Assembly (NCBI GenBank): GCA_037137535.1
Contig: JBAXKC010000002.1
Location: 64,001-128,000 of the forward strand
Source: a bacterium
Lineage (GTDB): Bacteria; Cyanobacteriota; Vampirovibrionia; Gastranaerophilales; JBAXKC01
DNA: 64,000 nucleotides
Reading direction: 5' to 3'
The notes beneath the pieces are model-generated. The model had not been told where the DNA came from. It saw only the letters and a program-made list of their open reading frames with translations, and did not search any database. The position numbers and the translations under genes are program-made. Shown piece after piece: positions 28,025 through 45,932 of the stretch; position 1 is the stretch's first letter, and each line of letters starts with the position of its first letter.

Positions 28025-28687
28025 TTATCTACTAAATTTTAAAGAACTTATAGCAGACTTAATATCGACTGCACAATACACATAAGAGCCTGCAACCAGA
28101 GCATTAGCACCCGCATCAACGCACAGTTTGCCCGTATGATTATTAATACCGCCATCAACTTCTATAATCAAATCATTTAAGTTTTGCTCAACAGCAAGTG
28201 ATTTAATAAAACTAATTTTATCTAAACTATCATTAATAAAAGATTGTCCGCCAAATCCTGGTTCAACTGACATAATTAAAACTAAATCTAATTCTTTAAT
28301 TAATGTACCAATTTCTTCTATATTAGTTTTAGGTTTAACAGAAAGACCAACTTTAACATTAAAACTCTTAATTAATTGAATAACCTCAGCAATATTTTCT
28401 TTACAGGCTTCATAATGAACAGTGATATAGTCTGCCCCTGCTGAAGCAAAATCTTCAATATAATTTTGTGGATGTTCAATCATCAAATGAACATCTAATG
28501 TCATATCAGTGATTTTTCTTAATGCTTTTACTACAGGAGCGCCAATTGTTATATTGGGAACAAAATGTCCGTCCATAACATCAACATGTACCCAATCTGC
28601 TCCAGCTAATTTAATTATATTAATATCTCTTTCAAGGTTTGCAAAATCAGCAGAAAGAATTGATGGCGCAACAATAATATTACTCAT
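28025..28687 (-). CDS. rpe: Ribulose-phosphate 3-epimerase
   Basis: APSILSADF, HVDVMDGHFVPNIT, MSVEPGFGGQ, EVDGG. Confidence 0.97.
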   Translation of the reverse strand: MSNIIVAPSILSADFANLERDINIIKLAGADWVHVDVMDGHFVPNITIGAPVVKALRKITDMTLDVHLMIEHPQNYIEDFASAGADYITVHYEACKENIAEVIQLIKSFNVKVGLSVKPKTNIEEIGTLIKELDLVLIMSVEPGFGGQSFINDSLDKISFIKSLAVEQNLNDLIIEVDGGINNHTGKLCVDAGANALVAGSYVYCAVDIKSAISSLKFSR

Positions 28688-29417
28688 TTTTTATTAGCTC
28701 TTCCGGCAATAGCCCTAAACTTATTACTCCCATTTTTGCAGCTTTTTGATGAGCCTCTTTTTTAGACTTACCTGTCCCAAATCCACAAACTTCATCATTA
28801 ATGACTACTTCAATTTCAAAAGTTCTGTTATGAGGTGGGCCCTCTTCTTTTACAACATTGTAAATTGGAAGATCAATAGCTTCAGCTTGTGTATACTCTT
28901 GAAGAATTGCTTTAAAGTTGTGCTTTGCAGCACTTTGATCGATTTCTGTAACTTCACTTTCAAGTAGATTTGTTAAACTTAGGTGTAATTCGTTGAACTT
29001 ACCATCTACATACAAAGCTCCAAGTAATGCTTCAAAAGCACAGGCTAAAGTAGATGCTCTGGTTCTTCCGCCTAATTTTTCTTCATGAAATCCAAGTCTG
29101 AGATATTTACCGAGATCAATACTATTTGCAATTTTTGTAAGTGTAACATCACTTATTAATATAGCTCTTATTTTTGTTAAATCGCCTTCCGTATAAGTCG
29201 GAAAGCGTTTTAACAAATAATCACTGGCAATAAGCTTTAGAACTGCATCACCTAAGAACTCAAGTCTTTCATTATTTATTAATGGACATAACTTATTTTC
29301 AAAGGTGTATGAACTATGAGTCAGAGAATTTTCAATCAGTTCATAATTATCACTATGCATACCAATTTTGGTAAGCAATTCATTGATTTTTTGGGTTTTA
29401 TTGCGGTTATCATTCAT
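28680..29417 (-). CDS. rnc: Ribonuclease III
   Basis: NERLEFLGDAVL, FEALLGALY, dsRBD; ATG at 29417 preferred. Confidence 0.96.
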   Translation of the reverse strand: MNDNRNKTQKINELLTKIGMHSDNYELIENSLTHSSYTFENKLCPLINNERLEFLGDAVLKLIASDYLLKRFPTYTEGDLTKIRAILISDVTLTKIANSIDLGKYLRLGFHEEKLGGRTRASTLACAFEALLGALYVDGKFNELHLSLTNLLESEVTEIDQSAAKHNFKAILQEYTQAEAIDLPIYNVVKEEGPPHNRTFEIEVVINDEVCGFGTGKSKKEAHQKAAKMGVISLGLLPEELIKNE

Positions 29418-29433
29418 ATTATAAACCTGATTA

Positions 29434-30294
29434 TTAAAAAATGTTAATAATTGCTGTCTTGCCAAGAACTATCATAGAAAAGTAATAAAAAGCTATAGCA
29501 CCGGTTATTACATAACTATCTGCTCTATCTAAAACACCACCATGCCCTGGGAATAAATTGCCTGAATCTTTGACACCTGCATCTCTTTTTATCATAGATT
29601 CACATAAATCTCCAAGTTGAGCAGAGGCAGTTAACAAAAGACCTGCAAAAAATGAATGAATTATATTTAAATTTATTATTGAACCAATCAATAATGCGCC
29701 GATTATGCCAGCAATTGTAGCAGCAGCAGCTCCTTCAATCGTTTTGTTAGGACTTATTGTAGGACAAAGTTTATGTTTACCAAAGTTTGTTCCAATATAA
29801 TAAGCCGCAATGTCAGAAACTGATATAACTACAAACAGAAGTAAAATATAGCCTAATCCATCTGAGAAGTGATGACCAAAAATATCAAAACCTTTTTCAT
29901 TCAGATTTCTGATAAATAATAGATGCAATGGCAACCATCCACCATAAAAGAAGCAAAGCATACTAACAGCCGAATCAGCAATTTTCCCATTTTGTCCTCT
30001 AAGCATAGTTAATACAAGAGATAAAATCCCAGACAAACTGAACAGTATAGGGATTAGGCTATATAATTTAAAGGATGCCGCTGCTAATAAAGCTAAATTA
30101 GATGTTAAGATTAATGGAGTGTTAAGATTAAAGCCTTTTAATCTGCAAAGCTTAATTAACTCTAATGTTCCTAAAACTATTAAAACAGATAAAAACAAAC
30201 TGAAAGCCAAACCACCATATGCAAACATAACAAGAGCAATAGCTAAAAATATTACGGCAACAGTTACTCTTATAAATTGAGCTGAAACTTTCAC
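29434..30294 (-). CDS. cdsA: Phosphatidate cytidylyltransferase
   Basis: SDIAAY, ISPNKT.EG, GDLCES.IKR..GVKDSG..PGHGGVLDR.DS. Confidence 0.95.
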   Translation of the reverse strand: MKVSAQFIRVTVAVIFLAIALVMFAYGGLAFSLFLSVLIVLGTLELIKLCRLKGFNLNTPLILTSNLALLAAASFKLYSLIPILFSLSGILSLVLTMLRGQNGKIADSAVSMLCFFYGGWLPLHLLFIRNLNEKGFDIFGHHFSDGLGYILLLFVVISVSDIAAYYIGTNFGKHKLCPTISPNKTIEGAAAATIAGIIGALLIGSIINLNIIHSFFAGLLLTASAQLGDLCESMIKRDAGVKDSGNLFPGHGGVLDRADSYVITGAIAFYYFSMIVLGKTAIINIF

Positions 30295-30854
30295 TAAACC
30301 GACATAACCTCTTTTTCTTTATCCATAACGATTGTATCAATTTCTTTTGTATATTTATCTGTGATTTTTTGAATTCTATCCTGTTCTTTTTTTACTTCAT
30401 CTTCAGGAAGATTTTCGTCTTTTTCAGCTTTTTTTAGAGCATCTGACATTTCACGTCTGATATTTCTAACAGCAACTTTATTTTCTTCCCCAATTTTTTT
30501 AACTTGTTTAACAAGTTCTTTTCTTCTGTCTTCAGTTAAAGGCGGGAAAGTAATTCTAATATTTGCACCGTCATTATTAGGTGTTACGCCCAAATCAGAC
30601 TTTAAAATAGCTTTTTCAATATCTTTAATAATAGTTTTATCGTATGGCTGAATGAAAAGAGTTGTTCCATCCTGAACAGATACGTTAGCAGCCTGCCTGA
30701 TAGGTGTAGCTGAACCATAATAGTCAATAGATAGTCTGTCTAATACAACCGGATTTGCTCTGCCTGTTCTTATTGACAGAAATTCTCTTTTTGTTTCTGC
30801 AATAGTTTTTTGCATTTTAGCATCGCCACTTTTGATAATTTCTTCTATTGGCAT
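30294..30854 (-). CDS. frr: Ribosome recycling factor
   Basis: [27 protein letters not shown]. Confidence 0.97.
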
Positions 30855-31594
30855 TTTTCTGTTTCTCCTATTAAAGTACCAATCTTTTCACCTGTTACAA
30901 TTTTCTCAATACTTTGTTCACTTTGTGAGTTAAACACAATAATTGGAATACTACTATTTTTACATAAAGAAATTGCTGATGTATCAATAATCTTCAGATC
31001 TTTTACAATGAAATCATCATAAGTAAGATGGTCAAATTTAACTGCATCATCAAATTTTCTTGGATCTTTTGAATAAACGCCATCAACTTTATTTTTAGCC
31101 ATAAGCATAACTTCTGCATTAATTTCAGCAGCTCTAAGTGCAGCAGCGGTATCAGTAGTAAAGAAAGGATTTCCTGTTCCTGCCGCAAATATAACAACTC
31201 TGCCTTTTTCTAAATGTCTGATTGCTTTAAATCTTGTATATGATTCTGTTATTTCATTCATTGAAATAGCTGTTTGTACCCTAGTAGAAACATTGTTTTT
31301 TCTAAGCATACTTTGTAGAACCATAGCATTCATTACGGTAGCAAGCATACCGACATAGTCAGCTGAAGCTTGTTCCATTCCAAGCTTAGCACTATTTTGG
31401 ACGCCTCTGAAAATATTACCGCCACCCACAACGATAGCCACTTCAACGCCAAGGTCGTGCACTCTTTTAATTTCAAGAGCAACATTATTTATAACCTCTG
31501 GGTCAATACCAAAACCCAGATTGCCCATTAGAGCTTCACCACTAACTTTTATTAAAACTCTTTTATAAGCTAATTTGGTTTTATCTTCGCTCAT
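30845..31594 (-). CDS. pyrH: UMP kinase
   Basis: [34 protein letters not shown]. Confidence 0.97.
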
Positions 31595-31799: not shown

Positions 31800-31828
31800 T
31801 TGCAAAATATTTATTAATTGATTAGAAT
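31800..31828 (+). promoter_or_regulatory. Sigma70-type promoter of arg leader and operon
   Basis: TTGCAA-17 nt-TAGAAT. Confidence 0.75.
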
Positions 31829-31855
31829 TTAAAGAAAAGAAAAATTCAGGATCAA

Positions 31856-31924
31856 ATGAAATATTTAATTAAAAATAACAATCGACGCCAATTACGTAAA
31901 GACTCATCAGGAGGCTTATGTTAG
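31856..31924 (+). CDS. Putative arg operon attenuator leader peptide (22 aa, MKYLIKNNNRRQLRKDSSGGLC)
   Basis: AGGA 4 nt before ATG; Arg codons CGA-CGC at 31883-31888 and CGT at 31895-31897; overlaps antiterminator arm. Confidence 0.75.
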   Translation: MKYLIKNNNRRQLRKDSSGGLC

Positions 31925-31972
31925 GCTGTGTTTGTTATTTTGCCGATACATATATAAAGTTTTTAAACTTTT

Positions 31973-32002
31973 TACCTCCTGTATTTCAGGGGGTATTTTT
32001 TT
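31973..32002 (+). terminator. Attenuator terminator upstream of argC
   Basis: TACCTCCTG-tattt-CAGGGGGTA-TTTTTTT; 5' arm CCTCCTG is alternatively complementary to CAGGAGG at 31908-31914. Confidence 0.85.
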
Positions 32003-32046
32003 GTGTCAATTAAGAATTTTTTATTAAAAATAGGAATAAATAAATT

Positions 32047-33087
32047 ATGTTAACAGTTGGAATAATCGGTGCGACAGGCTATGCAGGAAGTGAACTTGTA
32101 AGAATTTTAGTAAATCATAAAGAAGTAGATAAAATACATTTGGTCTCAAAATCCTATGAAGGTAAGTCATTTAGTGATATTTACGGAAGTTTTAATAAAA
32201 TTGTAGATTTTAATTGCCAAAACAGCTCATTAAAAGAACTTTCAGAAATATGTGATGTTGTTTTTCTAGCAATGCCACATGGAATTGCAGCCGAAATTAT
32301 TACGGACGAAATTATCACAAACACAAAGATTATTGATTTAGGTGCTGATTTCAGAATTGATTGTATCGATACTTATGAAAAATGGTACGAAATTAAGCAT
32401 AAAGCAGAAAACCTAATTAATAAAGCAATTTATGGTCTTTGTGAATTAAACGCTGCTAAAATAAAAGATTATTCATTAGTTGCAAACCCTGGTTGTTACA
32501 CGACTTGTAGTATTCTGTCATTAGCACCTGCCTTAAAATACAAACTGATAAACACTGAAAACATTATCATAGATGCAAAATCAGGAGTTTCAGGAGCAGG
32601 AAGAAGTTTGAATACAGGTACATTATATTGCGAATCTAATGAAAACCTAAAATCCTATAAAGTTGCTTCTCACAGACATACACCCGAAATTGAGCAAGAA
32701 TTGTCAAAAATTAGCGGGGAAAACATATGTTTAACGTTTACTCCTCATTTAGTACCCATGCAACGAGGAATTTTAACAACCTCCTACACAAAACTTAAAA
32801 ATAATAATTCATATCAAGAAATTTATGATGCCTACAAAGAATTTTATCAAGATAACTATTTTATTCGAGTATTAGAAAATGGAAAAATACCGGAAACCCG
32901 ATGGGTAAAGAACTCTAACTTTTGTGACATAGGACTAGTATTAGATAAAAGAACTCAAACATTAATCATAATTGGTGCAATTGATAATTTAATCAAAGGA
33001 GCTTCTGGGCAAGCAGTTCAAAATATGAATATATTGTTTGGATTTGATGAAAAGACAGGATTAGATTTAGTCCCAAGCTTTATTTAA
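32047..33087 (+). CDS. argC: N-acetyl-gamma-glutamyl-phosphate reductase
   Basis: GATGYAG, ANPGCY, HRHTPEIEQ, IDNLIKGASGQAVQNMN. Confidence 0.97.
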   Translation: MLTVGIIGATGYAGSELVRILVNHKEVDKIHLVSKSYEGKSFSDIYGSFNKIVDFNCQNSSLKELSEICDVVFLAMPHGIAAEIITDEIITNTKIIDLGADFRIDCIDTYEKWYEIKHKAENLINKAIYGLCELNAAKIKDYSLVANPGCYTTCSILSLAPALKYKLINTENIIIDAKSGVSGAGRSLNTGTLYCESNENLKSYKVASHRHTPEIEQELSKISGENICLTFTPHLVPMQRGILTTSYTKLKNNNSYQEIYDAYKEFYQDNYFIRVLENGKIPETRWVKNSNFCDIGLVLDKRTQTLIIIGAIDNLIKGASGQAVQNMNILFGFDEKTGLDLVPSFI

Positions 33088-33099
33088 TTGGAGATTATA

Positions 33100-34320
33100 A
33101 TGAAAATAATTAACGGCACTATAAATTCACCTAAAGGCTTTAAATCAGCAGGGAATTTTATAGGTATAAAAAAACAAAAAAAAGATTTAGCTATAATTTA
33201 TTCTGAAGTTGATGCAGTAACAGCAGGTGTTTTAACGCTAAATAAAGTAAAAGCCGCTTGCGTAGTCAGAAACCAAGAAATTTTAAACAGTATTGATAAA
33301 ATCAGAGCAATTGTAATAAATAGCGGTAATGCTAATGCTTGCACAGGTGAAGAAGGCAAACAAAATAATGTGATAATGGCTCAAACATTAGCCAAAAGTC
33401 TTGATATTGAAGCTGATAAAGTAATTACTGCTTCAACAGGTGTTATCGGGGTACAATTAGACACAAATATTATAGTGGAAGGAATAAAACAATCTGCTAA
33501 ATTACTTGATATTAACCAACAAGCAGGATTGGATGCCGCTGAAGCAATAATGACGACTGATACTTTTACTAAAAACATTTGCGTACAAATAGAAATTGAT
33601 AAAAAGTTAGTAACTTTAAGTGGTATAGCAAAAGGATCTGGAATGATACATCCAAATATGGCCACTATGCTTGGTTTTATAACAACAGATGCTAAAGTTT
33701 CACAATCAACATTAAATAATTTATTAAAAGAAATTGTTGACGATACCTACAATATGATTTCAGTTGATGGCGATACCAGCACAAATGATATGGTTATTGT
33801 TATGGCAAATGGAGCAAGTGAATGTTCTGAAATAACTGAAAATCATTCACAATTTAATAAATTTAAAGAAGCATTTTATTATGTAAATGAATTTTTAGCT
33901 AAACAGATAATTTCTGATGGCGAAGGTGCCACAAAATTTTTAGAAGTATCAATTAGTGGAGCTAATTCAAAAGATAATGCTAAAAAACTTGCTAAATCAA
34001 TTATTTCTTCAAGTTTAGTAAAAGCGGCATTTTTCGGTTGTGATGCAAACTGGGGAAGAATACTCGCTGCAATGGGATATTCTGAAGCTGATTTCAACCC
34101 ACAAAGCGTAAATATATCTTTTAAAAGTGAAGCAGGCTTAATTGATCTAATGAAAAACGGAGTACCGATAAGTTTTGATGAAGAAATAGCTTTAAAAATT
34201 CTAAAGCCTAAACATATTAATATTTTAATTTCCTTATCAGATGGAAACCATAAAGCAAAAGCGTGGGGCTGTGACTTAAGCTATGAATACGTAAAAATCA
34301 ATGGTGAATACAGATCATAA
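33100..34320 (+). CDS. argJ: Ornithine acetyltransferase
   Basis: NSGNANACTG, AIMTTDT, KGSGMIHPNMATML, DGDTSTND. Confidence 0.97.
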   Translation: MKIINGTINSPKGFKSAGNFIGIKKQKKDLAIIYSEVDAVTAGVLTLNKVKAACVVRNQEILNSIDKIRAIVINSGNANACTGEEGKQNNVIMAQTLAKSLDIEADKVITASTGVIGVQLDTNIIVEGIKQSAKLLDINQQAGLDAAEAIMTTDTFTKNICVQIEIDKKLVTLSGIAKGSGMIHPNMATMLGFITTDAKVSQSTLNNLLKEIVDDTYNMISVDGDTSTNDMVIVMANGASECSEITENHSQFNKFKEAFYYVNEFLAKQIISDGEGATKFLEVSISGANSKDNAKKLAKSIISSSLVKAAFFGCDANWGRILAAMGYSEADFNPQSVNISFKSEAGLIDLMKNGVPISFDEEIALKILKPKHINILISLSDGNHKAKAWGCDLSYEYVKINGEYRS

Positions 34321-34334
34321 ATAAAGGCAGAAAA

Positions 34335-35195
34335 ATGCATAAATACATTGAAAAAGCTAAAATATTAATCGAATCATTGCCATACATAAAGAAATTCAAT
34401 GGTAAAACAGTTGTAATTAAGTATGGCGGAAGTGCAATGCTTAATGAAAATCTTAAAAAAGCTGTTATGCAAGATATTGCACTGATGAAACTGGTTGGAA
34501 TAAGACCTGTAATTGTACATGGAGGTGGTCCTGAAATAAATTCACTCTTAGAGAAAATCGGTAAAAAAGCTGAATTCATAGATGGATTAAGAGTAACAGA
34601 CGACGAAACAATGGAATGCGTCGAAATGGTTTTAGCAGGAAAAGTCAATAAATCAATAGTAAATCACCTTTTAAATATCGGCGGAAATGCTGTAGGAATA
34701 AGCGGAAAAGATGCAAATATTATTGAAGCGGAAAAAAAATTAGTAAACGGAAAAGATGTGGGATTAGTTGGTGAAGTGAAAAATGTTAATCCACAACTGA
34801 TAAACACGCTTATAGAAAGCGACTTTGTCCCTGTAATAGCTCCTGTCGGCAGAGATAAAATAGGCTTAACCTATAATATCAACGCTGATTATGCAGCTGA
34901 AGCCATAGCAGTTGCTCTAAATGCTGAGAAATTAGTATTTTTAACTGACGTAGAGGGAGTTTTAATGAATAAAAATGACTCTTCTTCTCTAATTTCTTCC
35001 TTAAAAGTAAATACCTCTGAAAAATTGATTGAGGCAAAAATTATTCAAGGCGGAATGATACCAAAAATTGAGTGTTGCAACAGAGCCGTTAAAAATGGTG
35101 TTAAAACAGTTCACATTCTTGACGGAAGAGTTGAACACAGTCTTTTACTGGAAATTTTTACGGAAGCAGGCATTGGGACAATGATAGAGGAATAA
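34335..35195 (+). CDS. argB: Acetylglutamate kinase
   Basis: VIKYGGSAM, VHGGGPEI, NINAD, GGMIPK. Confidence 0.97.
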   Translation: MHKYIEKAKILIESLPYIKKFNGKTVVIKYGGSAMLNENLKKAVMQDIALMKLVGIRPVIVHGGGPEINSLLEKIGKKAEFIDGLRVTDDETMECVEMVLAGKVNKSIVNHLLNIGGNAVGISGKDANIIEAEKKLVNGKDVGLVGEVKNVNPQLINTLIESDFVPVIAPVGRDKIGLTYNINADYAAEAIAVALNAEKLVFLTDVEGVLMNKNDSSSLISSLKVNTSEKLIEAKIIQGGMIPKIECCNRAVKNGVKTVHILDGRVEHSLLLEIFTEAGIGTMIEE

Positions 35196-35197
35196 TT

Positions 35198-36376
35198 ATG
35201 CAAAATCTTATTGAAAAAAGTAAAAAATATAAAATGAATACTTATGCCTCGTTTGATATTGTACTGGAAAGTGGTAATGGAAGTACATTAAAAGACATTA
35301 ACGGCAAAGAATACCTTGATTTTGTATCAGGGATAGCTGTTAATAGTCTGGGATACGGTCAGACAGACATATTAAAAGCATTAGTAGGACAAGCTTGCAT
35401 GCTTACGCACTGCTCAAATCTATATTTAAACTTAAATGAAATTGAGCTTGCGGAAAAACTTGTTGAAAATTCTTGTTTTGACAAAGTCTTTTTCTGTAAC
35501 AGCGGTACAGAATCTGTTGAAGCCGCTATAAAATTAGCAAAAAAATATGGTAAAACACAAAAAAATATAGATACACCTGAAATTATAAGTATGAAACAAT
35601 CTTTTCATGGAAGAACACTTGGTGCTCTAACTGCAACAGGGCAAGATAAATATCAATCAAGTTTTACTCCTTTGTTAAGTGGCTTTAATTATGCAGAATT
35701 TAATAATATTGAATCAGTTAAATCAATAATAAATGAAAAAACATGCGCTGTCATAATTGAAATTATTCAAGGTGAAGGCGGGATTTTACCAGCTACAACT
35801 GATTTTATTAAAGAACTAAGAGAAATTACGCAAGATAAACATATTTTATTAATAATAGACGAAGTTCAAACAGGAATTGGCAGAACAGGCAAACTTTTTG
35901 CTCATCAGCATTACGGAATAGAACCGGATATTATGACTTTAGCTAAAGGCTTAGGTGGTGGAGTTCCAATAGGTGCAATGCTTGCGAAAGATTTTGTCGC
36001 TAATTCTTTTATAGCAGGCGATCATGCTTCAACATTCGGTGGAAATCCTCTTGCTTGTGGAGCAGCCATTGCTGTACTAGATAAAATATTATCCGATTGT
36101 TTCTTCGATGAAGTTAAAGCAAAAGGTCATTATCTTAAAGAGCGATTATTAGAATTAAATATCGAAAATACGGAAGTTCGAGGAATGGGACTAATGTTTG
36201 GAATGGAGTTTTCTTTTCCAGTCAAACCAATTATAGAAAAATGCATAGAAAACGGATTATTATTGATAGGAGCAGGTGCCAACGTTATAAGGTTTGTACC
36301 TCCTCTGATAATAGAGTTTGAAGAGATTGATAAAGCAGTAGATATACTGCAATCTGCACTTTTGGAGATTAAATAA
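35198..36376 (+). CDS. argD: Acetylornithine aminotransferase
   Basis: FHGRTLG, IQGEGG, DEVQTG.GRTG, LAKGLGGG. Confidence 0.95.
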   Translation: MQNLIEKSKKYKMNTYASFDIVLESGNGSTLKDINGKEYLDFVSGIAVNSLGYGQTDILKALVGQACMLTHCSNLYLNLNEIELAEKLVENSCFDKVFFCNSGTESVEAAIKLAKKYGKTQKNIDTPEIISMKQSFHGRTLGALTATGQDKYQSSFTPLLSGFNYAEFNNIESVKSIINEKTCAVIIEIIQGEGGILPATTDFIKELREITQDKHILLIIDEVQTGIGRTGKLFAHQHYGIEPDIMTLAKGLGGGVPIGAMLAKDFVANSFIAGDHASTFGGNPLACGAAIAVLDKILSDCFFDEVKAKGHYLKERLLELNIENTEVRGMGLMFGMEFSFPVKPIIEKCIENGLLLIGAGANVIRFVPPLIIEFEEIDKAVDILQSALLEIK

Positions 36377-37446
36377 TGAAAGCAAATATATTACTAGAAG
36401 ATGGAACAGTTCTTCAAGGTAAATTTTTTGGAAAAGTGGGAACAGCATTCGGAGAAATCGTTTTTAATACAGGAATGACGGGCTATCAAGAAGTATTAAC
36501 TGATCCTTCTTATGCTGGACAAATTGTTGTAATGACATATCCGTTAATTGGAAGTTATGGCACAAATAATAATGATATTGAATCAAAAAGTCCTAAAGTA
36601 AACGGTTTCATAGTAAAAGAATACGTAAATGACTGCTCTAACAGGAAATCAGATCAAAACTTATCAGATTATCTTGAACAAAATAATATTGTAGCTGTAT
36701 ATGACCTAGACACAAGAATGTTAACCAAAAAAATCAGAAATCAAGGTGCGATGAAGTGCTTAATAACAAATGAAACCCTGAGTGATTGGCACACAATCTC
36801 ACTTCAAAATTATAGCTTTCCATCTGATGTAGTAAGTCAGGTTTCGCAAAAAGAAGTTACGAACATCAGCGGAACAGGCAAAAAAATAGCTTTAATTGAC
36901 CTTGGTATAAAGAATGGAATAATTGAAAACTTTAAAAGATTAAACTGCGATATAACAGTTTATCCACATGATGTTACTGCGGATACTATTTTAAATAATG
37001 ATTATGGTGCAGTATTCTTTTCAAATGGCCCTGGAGACCCAAAAGAAGCTAAAGAAGCGATAACAGCGGCAAAGCTCTTAATAGGAAAAATCCCTGTTTT
37101 TGCAATTTGTTTAGGTCAACAAATTTTGGCTTTAGCATTAGGTGCAGATACTTACAAGATGAAATTCGGACATAGAGGGGCTAATCATCCAGTTATTGAT
37201 GTAAGAACAAATAGAGTAATGATTACTTCTCAAAATCATGGTTATGCCGTTAAAGGTGAAACCTTACCAGATAACATAAAAATTACTCACATAAATGTAA
37301 ATGACGAAACAATTGAAGGTTTTTATTCGACCGAGTTGAATATTCATTCCGTTCAATTCCACCCTGAAGCTGGCCCTGGACCAGATGATGCCTGTTATAT
37401 ATTTGACGATTGGATGAAATTACTGGAGATTGAACAAAATGCCTAA
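36376..37446 (+). CDS. carA: Carbamoyl-phosphate synthase small subunit
   Basis: [33 protein letters not shown]. Confidence 0.97.
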
Positions 37447-40400
37447 AAATAACGATATAAAAAAAGTTCTGGTAATTGGCTCAGGACCAATAATAATTGG
37501 ACAAGCTGCTGAATTTGATTACGCAGGTACTCAAGCCTGTAAATCTCTGAAAGAAGAAGGTATTAAAGTTATTCTTGTAAATAGCAACCCTGCAACAATA
37601 ATGACCGATGATAACATTGCAGATAAGGTTTATATTCAGCCGATAAATGTACAGGCAATAGAATATATTATCAACAAAGAAAGACCTGACGGACTTTTGC
37701 CGACTTTAGGCGGTCAAACAGGCTTAAATATGGCGGTTGAGCTTAATGAAGCAGGAATATTAGAGAAATACAACGTAAAACTTTTAGGAACGTCCTTAGA
37801 TACAATTAAAAAAGCAGAAGACAGAGAAAGTTTTAAAGAATTAATGCAGGAAATAGGCGAGCCTATACCAAAAAGCAAAATTGTTGAAACTCTGGAAGAT
37901 GGTTTAGCTTTTGCAACTGAAACAGGTTATCCTCTAATAGTAAGACCAGCTTATACTCTTGGCGGAACAGGAGGTGGTATAGCCTTTAATGAAGGAGAAC
38001 TAAAAAAAGTTTTATATTCTGGATTAATGCACAGTAGAATAAATCAGGTTTTACTTGAGCAAAGCGTTGCAGGTTTCAAAGAAATAGAATATGAAGTAAT
38101 GAGAGATTCTAATGATACTTGCATTGTCATCTGTAACATGGAAAATCTTGATCCTGTCGGTATTCATACAGGTGATAGCATAGTTGTTGCACCATCACAA
38201 ACGCTAAGAGATGAAGAATATCAAATGTTGAGAAGTTCTTCAATTAAAATAATCAAAGCCTTAAAAATCGAGGGAGGCTGTAATGTTCAATACGCATTAA
38301 ATCCCGATTCACTTGAGTATTTCGTAATTGAAGTAAACCCGAGAGTCAGCAGATCATCTGCTTTAGCATCAAAAGCGGCAGGCTATCCAATTGCTAAAAT
38401 TGCTGCAAAAATAGCAATTGGTTTACATTTACACGAAATACCGAATTACGTTACAAAAAAAACTAAAGCCTCTTTCGAGCCTGTATTAGATTATATAGTT
38501 ACTAAAATTCCTAAGTTTCCTTTTGATAAATTTTCTTATGCTGATAAGACTCTTGGTACTCAAATGAAAGCTACTGGAGAAGTTATGGCAATAGACAGGA
38601 CTTTTGAAAGTTCTTTTCTTAAAGCTATGATTTCACTTGAAGGCGGAGAAACAGGTTTAAGAAGAACTTATTTATCAGAAATGAGCGATGAAGAAATTCT
38701 GGAAAGCCTTAAAGAAATAACTGAGTGCAGAATTTTAAACGTAGCAGAGGCTTTAAGAAGAGATATTTCGATAGAAACAATATATTCTATTACGAAAATT
38801 GATAAATGGTTTTTAAATAAACTTAAAAACATTACAAATATGGAAAACAGGCTAAAAAGAGAACTTTTAACGGCTAATTTATTGAAAACGTGTGAAGCAA
38901 TGGGCTTTACGGACAATGAAATATGCGAACTCTCAGACGAACCGCTCGAAGTATTAGACACTCTTAGAAGAGTTTACAACCTTTATCCTGTCTATAAAAT
39001 AGTTGATACTTGCGCAGGCGAATTTGAATCAGCAACACCATACTATTATTCAACCTATGAACAAGAAGACGAAAATATAATCAGCAATAGGGAAAAAGTT
39101 ATAGTAATTGGTTCAGGACCTATAAGAATTGGACAGGGCATTGAGTTTGATTATTGTTCAGTACACGCAGCATGGGCTATTCAAGAAGCTGGACATGAGT
39201 CGATAATAATTAATAATAATCCAGAAACAGTTAGTACAGACTTTGATACAGCTGATAAATTATATTTCGAGCCTTTATATATAGAAGATGTATTTAACGC
39301 AATAAGAAAAGAAATGCCCAAAGGAGTAATTGTACAATTTGGCGGACAAACTGCTATTAATCTTGCTCCTAAACTTCTTAAAAGAGGCGTTCAGATACTT
39401 GGAACATCAGTTGATTCAATAGATGTAGCAGAGGATAGAAAAAGATTTGAAAGATTATTAAGAGAGCTTGGAATACCACAACCTAACGGAACAGCAGTAA
39501 CAAACCTTGAAGATGCCGTAACAGCCGCAGAAACTCTAGGTTATCCCGTATTAGTAAGACCTTCTTATGTAATAGGCGGAAGAGCAATGCAAGTTGTGCT
39601 CTCAAAAGAAGAGCTTATTTTATATGTTCTTGAAGCAGCTTCATTATCTGATGAACATCCGATTTTAATTGATAGCTATATAAAAGGTAAAGAAGTCGAA
39701 GTTGATGCAATATCAGATAGAGAAAATATCTTAATCCCAGGAATAATGGAGCATATAGAAAAAACAGGAGTTCATTCAGGGGACAGCATAACCGTTTATC
39801 CGACACAAACTCTTTCTAGAAATGTAATTGATAAAATGATTGGTTATACAGAAAAAATTGCAAAAGCACTTCAAGTAATAGGACTAATGAATATTCAATT
39901 TGTCGTAAAAGATGAAGATGTTTTTGTAATCGAAGTTAATCCTAGAGCCTCAAGAACGGTGCCAATTCTAAGTAAAGTAACTAAAGTTCCTATGGTTAAT
40001 ATTGCAGTAAGAACAATATTGGGCGAAAAGTTAAAAAATATGGAATACGGAGTCGGCTTAATGCCCACAAGCAATCTTGTAGCAGTAAAAATACCAGTCT
40101 TTTCCTTTCAAAAACTTCATGGTGTCGATGTAGCATTAACACCTGAAATGAAATCAACTGGAGAAGTATTAGGAGTTGCTGAAAATTATGAAGAAGCCTT
40201 ATTAAAAGGCTTTATGGGAGCTGATTATAAGTTTTTCAACGGCGGTAAGATTTTAGTTTCTATTTCAGATAATGATAAAGAAGATTTAATAGTACCACTT
40301 AAAAAAATAATTAAAAAAGGTTTTAAGGTAGTAGCAACACAAAAAACTTACGAATATTTAAAATGCAATAATATTGACACAGAAGTGATTGATATAGAAA

Positions 40401-40645
40401 ATATTGACGAAATAATAAATAAAATCAAATCGGGAGAAATAAATTTAGTTATCAACACACCTACATTAGGAAAAAATCCTAAAAGAGCAGGATTTAAAAT
40501 AAGGCAGGCTGCTCAACAATATAAGATACCGACATTTACATGTATTGATACTTTTGATGCTTACATAAAAGCATTAACAGCTTATCAAAATAAAGATAAA
40601 TTAACATTTGAAACTATTGATTACTACATAAAAGGAGAAAAATAA
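37439..40645 (+). CDS. carB: Carbamoyl-phosphate synthase large subunit
   Basis: MPK start, [15 protein letters not shown], two ATP-grasp domains, MGS domain. Confidence 0.98.
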
Positions 40646-41859
40646 TGAAAAAGAAGGTAGTTCTTGCATACTCAGGCGGACTTGATACTACGGTAATTAT
40701 TCCATGGTTAAAAGAAAATTATGATTATGATGTAATAGCCGTTTGCGTTGACTTAGGACAAGGAACTGAAACAGAAGGCTTGGAAGAAAAAGCTATATCA
40801 ACAGGCGCAAGTAAATTCTTTTTAGTAGATGTTAAAGATGAATTCGTAACTGACTATATTTTCCCGACATTAAAAGCAGGGGCGATATATGAAAATAGAT
40901 ATTTACTCGGAACTTCAATGGCAAGACCTTTAATTGCAAAAGTATTGGCGAAAATTGCAATTGAAGAAGGCGCAGAAGCGATTTGCCACGGTGCGACAGG
41001 CAAAGGTAACGATCAAGTTAGATTTGAACTTGGAATTAAAGCATTTGCTCCAAATATGAAAATAATTGCTCCTTGGAGAATGTGGGATTTAAAATCAAGA
41101 GAAGATTTAATAAATTATTTACAAAAGAAAGGTATAAATTTACCTTTCAGAGTAACTGAAAGTTACAGCAGAGATAAAAATTTATGGCACTTAAGTCATG
41201 AAGGTTTAGAGCTTGAAGATCCATCAGTTGAACCTGATTACGAAAAGATTTTACAAATAGCAGTACCTCTTGAAAAAGCATCAGATACACCTGAATATGT
41301 TGAACTTGAGTTTATAAAAGGTATTCCTGTAAAACTTAACGGTGAAGAAGTTTCACCCGTTGAATTAATTAAACAACTTAATATTATTGGCGGAAGACAC
41401 TCAGTTGGACTTACTGATTTAGTCGAAAACAGAGTTGTAGGAATAAAAGCCAGAGGAGTTTATGAAAATCCGGCTGGAGCTGTATTATTCTTTGCTCATG
41501 AACAACTTGAACATATTTGCCTCGACAGACAAACCTACTCTTTCAAGCAAAATGTAGCTAACAGGTTTGCAGAGCTTACTTATGCAGGTGAATGGTTCAC
41601 ATTACTAAGAGAATCATTAAGTGCTTTTATTGATTACACTCAGCTTACAGTAACAGGTACTGTTAAACTTAAACTTTTCAAAGGAAATATAATTCCTGCT
41701 GGCACAACTTCACCGTATTCTTTATATGATGAAAGCCTTGCAAGCTTTACAACCGGCGATTTATACAGCCACAAAGACGCAGAAGGCTTTATTAATCTGT
41801 ATGGTTTACCAATTAAAGTCAGAGCCTTAATGTCCGAAGCTAAAGGTTTATTGATTTAA
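40645..41859 (+). CDS. argG: Argininosuccinate synthase
   Basis: [23 protein letters not shown]. Confidence 0.98.
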
Positions 41860-42634: not shown

Positions 42635-43684
42635 ATGAAAAAAAAATTATTATTCATTCTATCTCTTTTTCTTTTAATATTTATTTATTCTGCAGGAATT
42701 TTAATTAAATTCAACTTTGGCACTTCTGCCACCGACTATTTTAATAAAGGAATGCATCAAATAGTTTTACATAACTATAAAAAAGCTATTGAGAATTTTA
42801 ATAAAGCTATTTCAATTAATTTTAATTATTCAGAAGCATATTTTAATAGAGGCAATGCAAAAGAGTATTTAAACGATAAAAAAGGAGCGATAGAAGACTA
42901 TAATAAGGCTATATTAAGGAATCCAAACCTTGATTATATGTATATAAACAGAGGAAACGCCAAAAGTAATTTAAAAGAAGCTATCAAAGACTATAATAAA
43001 GCTATTTCAATCAATCCTCATAATCTAGCTGCATATCATAATAGAGCAAATGCTAAAGAGCGCTTAGGCGATTATAAAGGTGCAATTAACGATTACACAA
43101 AAGCAATCTCTATGACTCAAAAGCCTTTAAGCTACGAATCACGAGGACAAGCTAAACAACATTTAGGTGACTATGCCGGTGCACTTCAAGATTATAATAA
43201 AGCAATTTCTCTTTTTCCAAATTCAGATATGGGTTACATTTTTAGAGCAGGCATTAAATCCGAATTAGGCAATGACAAAGGAGCTGTTGACAATTATAAT
43301 AAAGCACTTTCTCTCAATATTAATAAGGATATGGCTTATAACGCTCTAGGTTATTTATACATATTAAATAATGAAACCGATCTTGCTATTGAAAACTTAG
43401 AAAAAGCGCTTACTTTAAATATTAATTCTCCCTGTATATTATCAAATTTAGGTGAAGCTTATCAACAAAAAAATGATATAAATAAATCTAAAAAATATTA
43501 TCAAAGAGCAAAAAAAGTTTACCCAAGTTTTCCTAAATACTTATACAAAGAAGCAATAGAAACCCGACTGAAAAATATAAGAAATTCAAAAAGTTGCATA
43601 AGACAAGCCTATGCGATGTCCCCAGATGATAAAGAAATTAAAAAACTTTATGACGAATTAATATTAAATTCAAAGAAGGATTGA
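42635..43684 (+). CDS. Membrane-anchored or secreted TPR-repeat protein
   Basis: N-terminal hydrophobic helix; repeated Y.NRG.AK..LGD.KGAI.DYNKAI units. Confidence 0.9.
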   Translation: MKKKLLFILSLFLLIFIYSAGILIKFNFGTSATDYFNKGMHQIVLHNYKKAIENFNKAISINFNYSEAYFNRGNAKEYLNDKKGAIEDYNKAILRNPNLDYMYINRGNAKSNLKEAIKDYNKAISINPHNLAAYHNRANAKERLGDYKGAINDYTKAISMTQKPLSYESRGQAKQHLGDYAGALQDYNKAISLFPNSDMGYIFRAGIKSELGNDKGAVDNYNKALSLNINKDMAYNALGYLYILNNETDLAIENLEKALTLNINSPCILSNLGEAYQQKNDINKSKKYYQRAKKVYPSFPKYLYKEAIETRLKNIRNSKSCIRQAYAMSPDDKEIKKLYDELILNSKKD

Positions 43685-43686
43685 TT

Positions 43687-45057
43687 ATGACTTCAAATAT
43701 TGATAAAAAATCAAAAAAGAATTCAATGACTAAAACTATAATATTAAACGTTTCAAAAAAAATTTTTAGTAAACTTCAGCCTCATCTTATTTTTTTATTT
43801 TGTTTATTAACAACTTTCGCGCTTTATGTGAAACTTCTAAGTTTTTGTAATTATCAAACTCGTTTTTTAATATCGTTAAATATTGTAATTTATTCGATTA
43901 GTGCCATAATTGGTGTTCTTTTAGGGCATATTATTGATAAGTTCATTAAAAAGAGAAATGAAAAAAAACAAAAATTAAAATTAGAAGAACTAAAAAAGAG
44001 TACTAAAACTTTATTAAATCCCAATCCTGAATTGCTTTATAAAGAAATATATGTTGAACAAATTCAATTTGAAGTGGGATATAGTTTAATAAAAATTGCT
44101 GATCCCGAACAAGGAGGAAATGTTGTTCCTTTAATAGATGATCTTAGAGGCAAACTAATTGATAAATTAGGATATATAATTCCGCCCATAAGAATTTGTG
44201 ATACTACAACTTTAGAAGAAAATGAATATCAGATTTTAATAAGAGAACAATTTGCCGTTAAAGGCAAAGTTTTTCCATTCCATAAAATGGCTACAAAAAG
44301 AGAATTAATAACAAACAATATTGAAATAAAAGCAGAATGGCAAGAAGAAACGCATCCGATAACAAAAGAAACTGTCTATTGGATAAAAAATGCAGAAAAA
44401 GAGTTTTTGGAAAAAGTTAATCTGATTAATCCAACTGATTTAATGATTGAACATTTAAAAACTGTCTGTATAAATTATTCAGATAATCTATTTACTTTAG
44501 ACAGCACAAAAAAGCTTTTAGAACATAGCAAAAACCTAGCACCAGTTTATTTTGATAATTTGGAGATTTCTTTGAGCCTTTTAAGAAAAATCCTTGTTAA
44601 CCTTATAAGAGAAGAAGTTTCAATAAAAGATATTCAATTAATTCTTCAATCATTAATTGAATTAACTGATAAAAAAATTTATGATGCTGATTATTTATCA
44701 GAACAATTAAGAAAAAAATTTATAAGACTCATTTCTACCAAATATGTTGATAAACAAAATATTTTAACCTGCATTAAAGTGCCTACTGACTTTGAACATT
44801 TATTTATGCCTAATTCAGATAGTAACAATTTAATACTATCTTTAATAAAATCAATTGAAACTCAAATTAATGAAGCCTATTATAAAAATGGAACCTATCC
44901 AGTTATTTTATGCTCAAATAATATCAGATTAAATCTATTTAGAACATTCAAAGAAAACATTAAAAACCTTACTATAACGGTGTTGGCAGAAGATGAAATT
45001 GCTGAATTTGTTATAATTAATAATATTGCTAATTTTTCAGAACTAAAAGTATTCTAA
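43687..45057 (+). CDS. FlhA/FHIPEP cytoplasmic-domain protein with only ~2 TM helices
   Basis: EVGYSLI.IADPEQGG, LGYIIPPIRICD...L..NEY.I.IR, LRKILVNLIREEVSIKD, PVILCS..IR. Confidence 0.8.
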   Translation: MTSNIDKKSKKNSMTKTIILNVSKKIFSKLQPHLIFLFCLLTTFALYVKLLSFCNYQTRFLISLNIVIYSISAIIGVLLGHIIDKFIKKRNEKKQKLKLEELKKSTKTLLNPNPELLYKEIYVEQIQFEVGYSLIKIADPEQGGNVVPLIDDLRGKLIDKLGYIIPPIRICDTTTLEENEYQILIREQFAVKGKVFPFHKMATKRELITNNIEIKAEWQEETHPITKETVYWIKNAEKEFLEKVNLINPTDLMIEHLKTVCINYSDNLFTLDSTKKLLEHSKNLAPVYFDNLEISLSLLRKILVNLIREEVSIKDIQLILQSLIELTDKKIYDADYLSEQLRKKFIRLISTKYVDKQNILTCIKVPTDFEHLFMPNSDSNNLILSLIKSIETQINEAYYKNGTYPVILCSNNIRLNLFRTFKENIKNLTITVLAEDEIAEFVIINNIANFSELKVF

Positions 45058-45293: not shown

Positions 45294-45932
45294 TTAACTA
45301 TAAGGATTTTCGCCTTCTAACATTAACGACAAAGAAATAAAACTTGCTGCCAAGTCTTGATTACAAATATGTATGCCTTCCGGCACTTTCAAAGTGGCGG
45401 GGGCAAAATTCCATATTGCTTTTATACCCGCTTCTACAATAAAATCAGTAGTATTTTGAGCGTATTCCGTTGGTATAGTCAAAATAGCCATTCTGACATT
45501 TTGTTTTTTTACAAAATCAGGAAGAGTCGAAATAGGAAAGATTTCTTTATTTGAGATTTTTAAACCGATTTTTTGTGGATCGTTATCAAAAATACCCGCA
45601 ATTTCTAAACCATATTTTTTAAATCCGTCATATTTAGCAAGAGCAATTCCAAGATTTCCTGCTCCTATTAAAAAAGCAGGTTTAAATGTTTTAAAACCAA
45701 GATAGTTTTCAAGATGTTCTTTAAAATCTTTAATATCAAATCCAATTTTTGGCTTACCGACATAACCTGTTGCAGCAATGTCTTTTCTTACCTGAGTATC
45801 GTCAATAGCAAGAGCATTAGCAATTTTAGCGCTTGAAATGAATTTTTGACCATCGTTAAGCGCTTCACAGAGAATATTATAATAATTTGGCAATCTTCTT
45901 AAAGTAGGAACTGGAATTGGCTTATTACTCAT
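45294..45932 (-). CDS. rex: Redox-sensing transcriptional repressor
   Basis: IP.PTLRRLPNYY, QVRKD, GAGNLG.AL, IWNFAP. Confidence 0.93.
   Translation of the reverse strand: MSNKPIPVPTLRRLPNYYNILCEALNDGQKFISSAKIANALAIDDTQVRKDIAATGYVGKPKIGFDIKDFKEHLENYLGFKTFKPAFLIGAGNLGIALAKYDGFKKYGLEIAGIFDNDPQKIGLKISNKEIFPISTLPDFVKKQNVRMAILTIPTEYAQNTTDFIVEAGIKAIWNFAPATLKVPEGIHICNQDLAASFISLSLMLEGENPYS

Follow-up and report, generated by a model that had tools for sequence, protein, structure and literature searches.

A conserved leader with tandem Arg codons ahead of the argCJBD-carAB-argG operon, very probably an arginine variant of classical attenuation

The arginine biosynthesis operon argCJBD-carAB-argG of the window, i.e. 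the whole stretch of 64,000 nucleotides analysed here, is preceded by a short ORF containing tandem CGN codons and by an intrinsic terminator. The conserved element is real and it is very probably an arginine variant of classical attenuation, a mechanism which is itself already known. On the basis of conservation and folding models, we give a probability of about 0.88 to the reading in which the element is a ribosome-mediated attenuator of the trp/his type, sensing charged tRNA-Arg(ACG). Three of its aspects are beyond chance: the antiterminator, the uniqueness of an ORF combining a Shine-Dalgarno (SD) sequence with tandem CGN codons, and the conservation in relatives. An arginine attenuator ahead of this operon had been proposed from the letters of the window; conservation, footprint folding and the fact that no ArgR was found all support this interpretation.

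The features of the element and of the genes that follow are:

31800..31828, plus strand: candidate sigma70-type promoter TTGCAA-17-TAGAAT (TTGCAA 31800-31805, TAGAAT 31823-31828)
31847..31852, plus strand: weak SD sequence AGGA of the leader, 4 nt upstream of the ATG
31856..31924, plus strand: leader ORF of 22 codons, MKYLIKNNNRRQLRKDSSGGLC, with counterparts in relatives
31872..31941, plus strand: predicted anti-antiterminator (1:2) hairpin of -17.7 kcal/mol, in which 31872-31881 and 31932-31941 form the outer stem
31883..31897, plus strand: putative control codons Arg10 CGA and Arg11 CGC (31883-31888) and Arg14 CGT (31895-31897)
31908..31914, plus strand: predicted antiterminator 5' strand CAGGAGG (segment 2), pairing with CCTCCTG 31975-31981
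31973..32002, plus strand: intrinsic terminator, 9-bp stem 31973-31995, -13.3 kcal/mol, T7 31996-32002, 5' arm holding CCTCCTG
32047..33087, plus strand: first regulated gene, with Semialdhyde_dh domains, which we take to be argC from knowledge of the family
33100..34320, plus strand: argJ (PF01960)
34335..35195, plus strand: argB (AA_kinase; named from context)
35198..36376, plus strand: argD (Aminotran_3; named from context)
36376..37446, plus strand: carA (CPSase_sm_chain, GATase)
37439..40645, plus strand: presumably carB, recognised by us from sequence type and position
40645..41859, plus strand: argG, last gene of the cluster (Arginosuc_synth)

The promoter, the 22-codon ORF with its CGA, CGC and CGT codons and the terminator were all recovered where the original prediction had placed them, and the CCTCCTG of the terminator arm is indeed the exact complement of the CAGGAGG inside the leader. 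The whole element spans about 200 nt, with a predicted terminated leader RNA of about 165 nt; segment 2 lies about 60 nt away from the terminator arm, and 44 nt separate the end of the terminator from the start of argC. The promoter candidate scores 9/12 and is not significant alone, since 4 sites were found versus 7.7 expected in shuffles; TTGCAA or TTGACA boxes are seen by eye at the equivalent position in most relatives, and transcription would start near 31835. The duplex energy of the SD sequence is -4.1 when computed against a short anti-SD motif. In the 1:2 hairpin, AAAATAACAA (31872-31881) is complementary to TTGTTATTTT (31932-31941), the Arg codons are located on the 5' side and CAGGAGG at the apex; this is probably also the hairpin at which the polymerase pauses. 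As for the earlier claim that this upstream hairpin can sequester the arm, the outer stem is real, whereas CAGGAGG is found partly in a loop and partly in a 3-bp stem, an arrangement in which it is surrounded by the hairpin without being firmly paired.

The genome carrying the window (G000; 2.95 Mb, 31% GC) has argF and argH on other contigs, and its argF is without such a leader. The prevalence of AGA, previously noticed in the neighbouring genes, extends to the whole genome: AGA represents 71.4% of the Arg codons in 1155 long ORFs, and CGT, CGC and CGA together account for 18.3%. One tRNA-Arg each is present for ACG, CCG and TCT, and thus all three leader Arg codons go through the ACG tRNA; CGA, CGC and CGT should all be readable by this single tRNA-Arg(ACG), by means of inosine-34. 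Upstream of the leader and divergent from it, a run of genes occupies positions 28680-31594 on the minus strand, which presumably corresponds to a housekeeping pyrH-frr-cdsA-rnc run, and the 450-nt gap contains both promoters. Beyond the operon, a 458-aa ORF (43681-45057, plus strand) resembles the cytoplasmic part of FlhA or of a type III export gate with a short membrane anchor, and a 212-aa ORF (45294-45932, minus strand) looks like the redox-sensing repressor Rex.

The argC gene is present in 43 of 401 genomes of the Gastranaerophilales-type order, and in 42 of these the start of the arg unit is readable, the contig of the remaining one (G215) beginning inside argF. The leader heads the arg unit in 28 of the 42 genomes, which are kin and not independent; by family, it was found in 1/1 for f1, 19/19 for f3, 3/3 for f4, 1/3 for f6, 2/2 for f9, 2/2 for f10 and 0/12 for f5. 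It is located ahead of argC in the argC-first operons and ahead of argF in the argF-argG-argH-argC ones; a similar leader is also found before argC in two named records of 'Candidatus Gastranaerophilales'. In the gut family f3 argC occurs in only 20 of 367 genomes, and all 19 readable units have the leader. The order leaders have 15-35 codons, with ATG or TTG as the start, and bear an SD-like motif in most of the 28 cases; when the terminator was correctly placed by the script, the first CGN codon lies 93-137 nt upstream of the U tract, while the weak terminators of G328 and G334 were positioned by hand. At three loci upstream of argF (in G167, G129 and G140) the leader ATG is, by eye, about 7 nt past the -10 box and no SD sequence is seen, an arrangement that suggests leaderless translation of these peptides.

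A strict automated test was passed by 23 of the 28 order leaders, the other five being accepted by eye; the same test was passed by none of the 14 argC loci of family f5 and genus g6, and by one of 71 argC loci of other groups (80 loci from named genomes, minus eight records of the own group and one with scant upstream DNA). Most of these named genomes are Firmicutes, spirochaetes and deltaproteobacteria, in which the leader was not found at argC. A class-wide sample of 99 argC-bearing genomes was also considered, and all 40 genomes of f12, a family of another order, were examined: the leader heads the arg unit in 27 of them, being located before argC in 19 genomes (20 loci), before argJ or argB in 5 and before argJ in 3 more. 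Five of the seven f12 genomes with neither ArgR nor a leader at argC then showed one before argJ or argB. The position of the leader follows the head gene of the unit, be it argC, argF, argJ or argB. Seven further families of the class are represented by 58 argC-bearing genomes; at 19 of their argC loci the region upstream of argC was searched, and no leader was seen. The original prediction had staked itself on the conservation of the short ORF and of its pairings among relatives; the layout and the complementarity between terminator arm and leader are kept in 55 genomes of two orders, the own genome included, while the sequences change.

Arginine synthesis is classically described as being under the control of a repressor, not of an attenuator, and a search for argR had been indicated as a check. 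Neither of the two ArgR Pfam domains was found in G000, which is 100% complete, while 8-9 of 14 control genomes were positive; the N-domain exceeded the cut-off in none of the 43 argC-bearing order genomes, and a C-domain scan of 35 genomes, drawn from the order and from other families, gave no hit above its cut-off. Of the 40 f12 genomes, 14 carry the C-domain, namely 3 of the 27 with the leader, all from genus g122, versus 11 of the 13 in which no leader was found, the leader scan of ArgR-bearing genomes covering the surroundings of argC, argJ and argG. At the genus level, seven f12 genera have the leader only, one has both and four have ArgR only. A strict mutual exclusion between leader and ArgR was considered and rejected, both being found together in three f12 genomes. 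In this genus, g122, argR precedes argG-argH and an Arg leader precedes argJ, between argC and argJ (L249-L251), an organisation in which dual control is possible. Family f5, where argC is present in 12 of 12 genomes and the arg genes are scattered, has neither a leader nor an ArgR that could be found; together with genus g6, this holds for fourteen order genomes with arg genes, indicating that ArgR absence does not imply the leader.

Alignment of 48 leaders (28 from the order and 20 from f12) on the first CGN codon revealed that Arg is found in 48/48 at this position, where it is fixed by the selection rule, in 46/48 at the next one and in 31/48 at the third. At the flanking non-Arg positions the top residue reaches at most 21/41 and none exceeds about half, so that, judged from these sequences, only the Arg pair is conserved among the 48 peptides. 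In 36 leaders the first CGN falls at codon 11 or 12, and in 35 the pair starts with CGA. The ACG tRNA reads 154 of the 192 leader Arg codons, compared to 44 of 279 in 23 order argC genes, a bias that is partly circular, since carrying at least two CGN codons was a condition for selecting the leaders, and GC content is higher in the f12 genomes. When the leader of the window is compared with its closest look-alikes, an AGGAGG-like box is seen in three different leader frames, suggesting that it is kept as RNA. The seven closest leaders have about 62% sequence identity and no conserved aptamer-like core, but start codon, frame and Arg codons are maintained. Their MAFFT alignments were too poor for column-wise covariation, and therefore a duplex test of own versus swapped partners was used: the own partner beats at least 90% of the terminator arms of other families in 35 of 48 leaders, a pattern pointing to an antiterminator that co-varies across leaders. 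The own segment/arm pair of the window misses this 90% bar, 19% of the foreign arms pairing as well.

The switch was computed by folding the RNA that extends from the 3' side of the ribosome, set 13 nt past the A site, to the terminator 5' arm, and by taking the energy gained by pairing the arm; the footprint size and the 7-nt arm are modelling choices. An initial footprint model, in which upstream RNA could pair across the ribosome, gave noisy profiles and was dropped. In the window, arm sequestration is worth between -6.6 and -9.3 kcal/mol when any of codons 8-14 is in the A site, -2.2 at codon 15, between -0.1 and -1.3 for the codons from 16 up to the stop, and -3.1 in the free RNA. The open codons thus include all three Arg codons and the open stretch ends right after Arg14; the open stretch also spans codons 8, 9, 12 and 13 (Asn, Asn, Gln, Leu), meaning that other shortages could trigger the switch in G000. 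The mean profile of the 28 order leaders peaks from the first CGN to two codons after it (-5.6 to -6.6 kcal/mol), against -1.4 at the stop and -2.1 in the free RNA; the CGN position is stronger than the stop by more than 1 kcal/mol in 22 of 28 and stronger than free RNA in 23 of 28, and 14 of 28 beat their own shuffles, with at most 3 of 60 shuffles as strong. Six order leaders, including four weak cases, show no difference between CGN and stop. Two of the six, G008 and G015, have their stronger antiterminator when the ribosome occupies the stop codon, and their termination would need ribosome release according to the model. The f12 leaders display a larger swing, -11 at the CGN versus -1.5 at the stop and -2.1 in free RNA, in all 20 tested, eight leaders found later being outside the set. 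Within this model-dependent computation, an antiterminator incompatible with the terminator arises when the ribosome occupies the control codons, and is absent at the stop or in free RNA, in the window, in 22/28 order leaders and in 20/20 of f12; the 1:2, 2:3 and 3:4 logic originally put forward, together with footprint folding as its check, is thus reproduced. At equilibrium the terminator of the full-length window RNA forms in every ribosome state (P 0.97-0.98), and hence readthrough needs the antiterminator to win kinetically; for the trp leader, the two alternative structures are described as similarly stable (PMC1183508).

The attenuation model would operate as follows. Transcription would begin near 31835 and the polymerase would probably pause at the 1:2 hairpin, while a ribosome is expected to follow on the leader. 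When arginine is plentiful, the ribosome would pass Arg14, cover CAGGAGG and then release, after which the 1:2 hairpin could re-form; in either state the terminator 5' arm would be left free and the polymerase would be predicted to stop near 32000, producing a transcript about 165 nt long. Under arginine shortage, the ribosome would wait at CGA-CGC (codons 10-11) or at CGT (codon 14), stalling on uncharged tRNA-Arg(ACG); it would hold segment 1 open and leave CAGGAGG exposed, so that this could pair with the emerging CCTCCTG. The terminator would then be blocked by the antiterminator, and argCJBD-carAB-argG would be transcribed by readthrough.

Within the genome of the window the signal is modest, since the leader ORF ranks 15th by amino-acid enrichment among the 181 regions of G000 with a short ORF and a terminator; this rank, and a promoter match within background, are what might be expected from an ordinary terminator next to a random short ORF. 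However, the argC leader is the only SD-bearing short ORF with tandem CGN before a terminator in those 181 regions, the two other tandem-CGN places being without SD, and its antiterminator energy of -7.8 kcal/mol was reached by none of 60 shuffles of the leader and by 2 of the 220 ordinary G000 terminators evaluated (out of 234). The layout shared by 55 genomes of two orders and the near-absence of strict-test matches in the other argC loci given above also stand against it. The chance reading has a negligible probability and is already refuted by the conservation and the switch results in relatives. The alternative helices, being real and co-varying, could also belong to an RNA switch working independently of translation (an arginine riboswitch, a T-box or a protein-binding leader), with the short ORF as an incidental presence, and T-boxes do control some amino-acid operons (PMC2965389). 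Against this, no Rfam family was found at the gathering level in 14 leader loci, except for a neighbouring tRNA, the leaders keep start codon, frame and Arg codons at about 62% identity rather than an aptamer-like core, and the total length is only about 165 nt. T-box models gave no match in the window at E up to 10 and none at gathering in the 14 loci; the Trp, His, Leu, Thr and Phe leader families did not reach their gathering scores in the window or in the 14 loci, the window having weak terminator-type matches only, with Phe_leader as the best leader family (20 bits versus a cut-off of 55, in the terminator region). Such a switch is therefore highly improbable.

A ribosome that stalls at the leader might also respond to something other than tRNA charging. 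Sensing of ornithine or arginine by the nascent peptide in the exit tunnel, in the style of SpeFL or of the fungal arginine attenuator peptide, with the arrest setting the switch, is very unlikely in our opinion. SpeFL/orf34 does have an Arg pair at codons 12-13 that is essential for ornithine capture (bioRxiv 604074), and the pair of the argC-type leaders is at a similarly fixed position; but no residue besides this pair is conserved, and the leaders match neither the conserved HIRRXXH sensor motif nor the fixed peptide length of the SpeFL type, ranging from 15 to 35 codons in the order whereas the arrest of SpeFL takes place at residues 33-34. Peptide-mediated arrest would moreover depend on residues, not on the codons of one particular tRNA, and in most leaders an arrest at the stop codon corresponds to the same terminated state as free RNA, so that only dwelling on the Arg codons opens the operon. 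The leader could instead be a general sensor of translation speed or ribosome stress, responding to slow decoding of CGA and other CGN codons, or to drug stalling at Arg-rich motifs, regardless of the arginine supply. The prominence of CGA, which is read by I:A wobble, at the beginning of the control pair would agree with this, as would the opening of the window switch on non-Arg codons as well; Arg-x-Arg motifs occur in antibiotic-sensing leaders (PMC8632094, on uORFC-6-1). The non-Arg codons of the open stretch, however, are not conserved, the combination of SD, tandem CGN and terminator is found once in the 181 G000 regions, before argC, and in relatives the leader tracks the arg genes through rearrangements; this explanation appears, if anything, even less probable than peptide sensing.

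Returning to attenuation by tRNA-Arg charging, other candidate attenuators are found in G000. A leader rich in Ile, Val and Leu, MSNNLLNIISIIVPVIIKQGL (contig C22, 37681-37746, plus strand), followed by a terminator and with a computed switch, lies before ilvD-ilvB-(small ORF)-ilvC and looks like a textbook ilv-type attenuator; with an equivalent computed switch in the same genome, the lineage plausibly runs the attenuation mechanism. Two Met/Cys-rich ORFs, MIVLKQKKSLNMCCMCFCMC and MKTNQPINFCKNMLMMFMMCCCMMHVLV, with leaders from 8788 and 6915 on the minus strand of contig C4, precede proteins of 468 and 676 aa, both without a Pfam match; each is followed by a terminator, and the computed antiterminator collapses past the Met/Cys run, so that they look like sulfur-amino-acid attenuators in the folding model. 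The closest homolog of the 676-aa protein, in G019, has a Met/Cys-rich leader too, and none was seen at the corresponding loci of 16 other genomes.

We consider it reasonably likely that attenuation is a widespread and so far undescribed control of arginine synthesis that largely stands in for ArgR in the class, which groups uncultured, non-photosynthetic relatives of cyanobacteria, travels with the head arg gene and reads tRNA-Arg(ACG), CGA being usually the first codon of the pair, also in genomes in which AGA prevails among the Arg codons. If so, arginine would join the amino acids sensed by classical attenuation, in bacteria devoid of ArgR, and a concrete regulatory model would become available for uncultured gut and freshwater Melainabacteria; f12, with its leader-only, ArgR-only and both-together genera, would allow the two control modes to be compared in nature. 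Control codons read by tRNA-Arg(ACG) in spite of 71% AGA would also permit a clean test of selective charging as the theory behind the choice of control codons (PMC1183508).

No leader-peptide attenuator for bacterial arginine biosynthesis was encountered in the literature searched, whose coverage is thin on subscription journals. Table S8 of Naville and Gautheret 2010 (PMC2965389) lists predicted premature terminators before argC, argF, argG, argJ and argB in several species, one of which, at Clostridium novyi argF, is flagged with a short ORF; in the accessible rows none is annotated as an arginine attenuator, and no arg terms occur in the available portion of the PMC8632094 supplement. The earlier remark that an Arg version would be unusual thus holds for biosynthetic operons within this literature, while leaders sensing Arg codons are known elsewhere, in speF orf34 and through the Arg codon of trpL. 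The fungal arginine attenuator peptide (arg-2/CPA1) offers a likeness, its uORF making a carbamoyl-phosphate/arginine gene responsive to arginine; however, the system is eukaryotic and relies on a conserved peptide whose arrest occurs when arginine is high and represses translation, which is the opposite stalling logic. E. coli argL, another small ORF, sits at the 5' end of argF, which serves arginine synthesis, and affects its expression (bioRxiv 511675); differently from the leader described here, it overlaps argF out of frame and dampens argF translation, in an organism that has ArgR, and the accessible text of that report describes no Arg-codon sensing or terminator switch. In Salmonella speF orf34 and E. 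coli speFL, consecutive Arg codons 12-13 sense arginine by ribosome pausing, but what is controlled is ornithine decarboxylase, with the involvement of Rho, of RNase G and of an arrest peptide that binds ornithine and contains HIRRXXH, and rare or common Arg codons both work in orf34 (PMC6386406; bioRxiv 604074). An effect of tandem CGG codons internal to E. coli argA has been modelled (PMC10325894), and data on CGA pairs exist for yeast (PMC7829197). Attenuation has been extended to further amino acids by the Ala-rich uORF of mycobacterial whiB7, experimentally supported and with another target (PMC10274678), and by uORFC-8-2 of Rhodobacterales cysS, with a different amino acid and target (PMC8632094). 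A further resemblance is with trpL, hisL, leuL, thrL, ilvL and pheL, which share a leader ORF with product-specific control codons near codon 10-12 (PMC1183508, Elf and Ehrenberg 2005), 1:2, 2:3 and 3:4 helices, an intrinsic terminator, stalling that leads to readthrough and biased synonymous control codons (PMC1183508). The E. coli trp leader even has an Arg codon at which stalling also relieves attenuation (PMC1183508). The putative attenuator ahead of argCJBD-carAB-argG would differ from these in that arginine is sensed for an arginine operon, in a host of Melainabacteria type.
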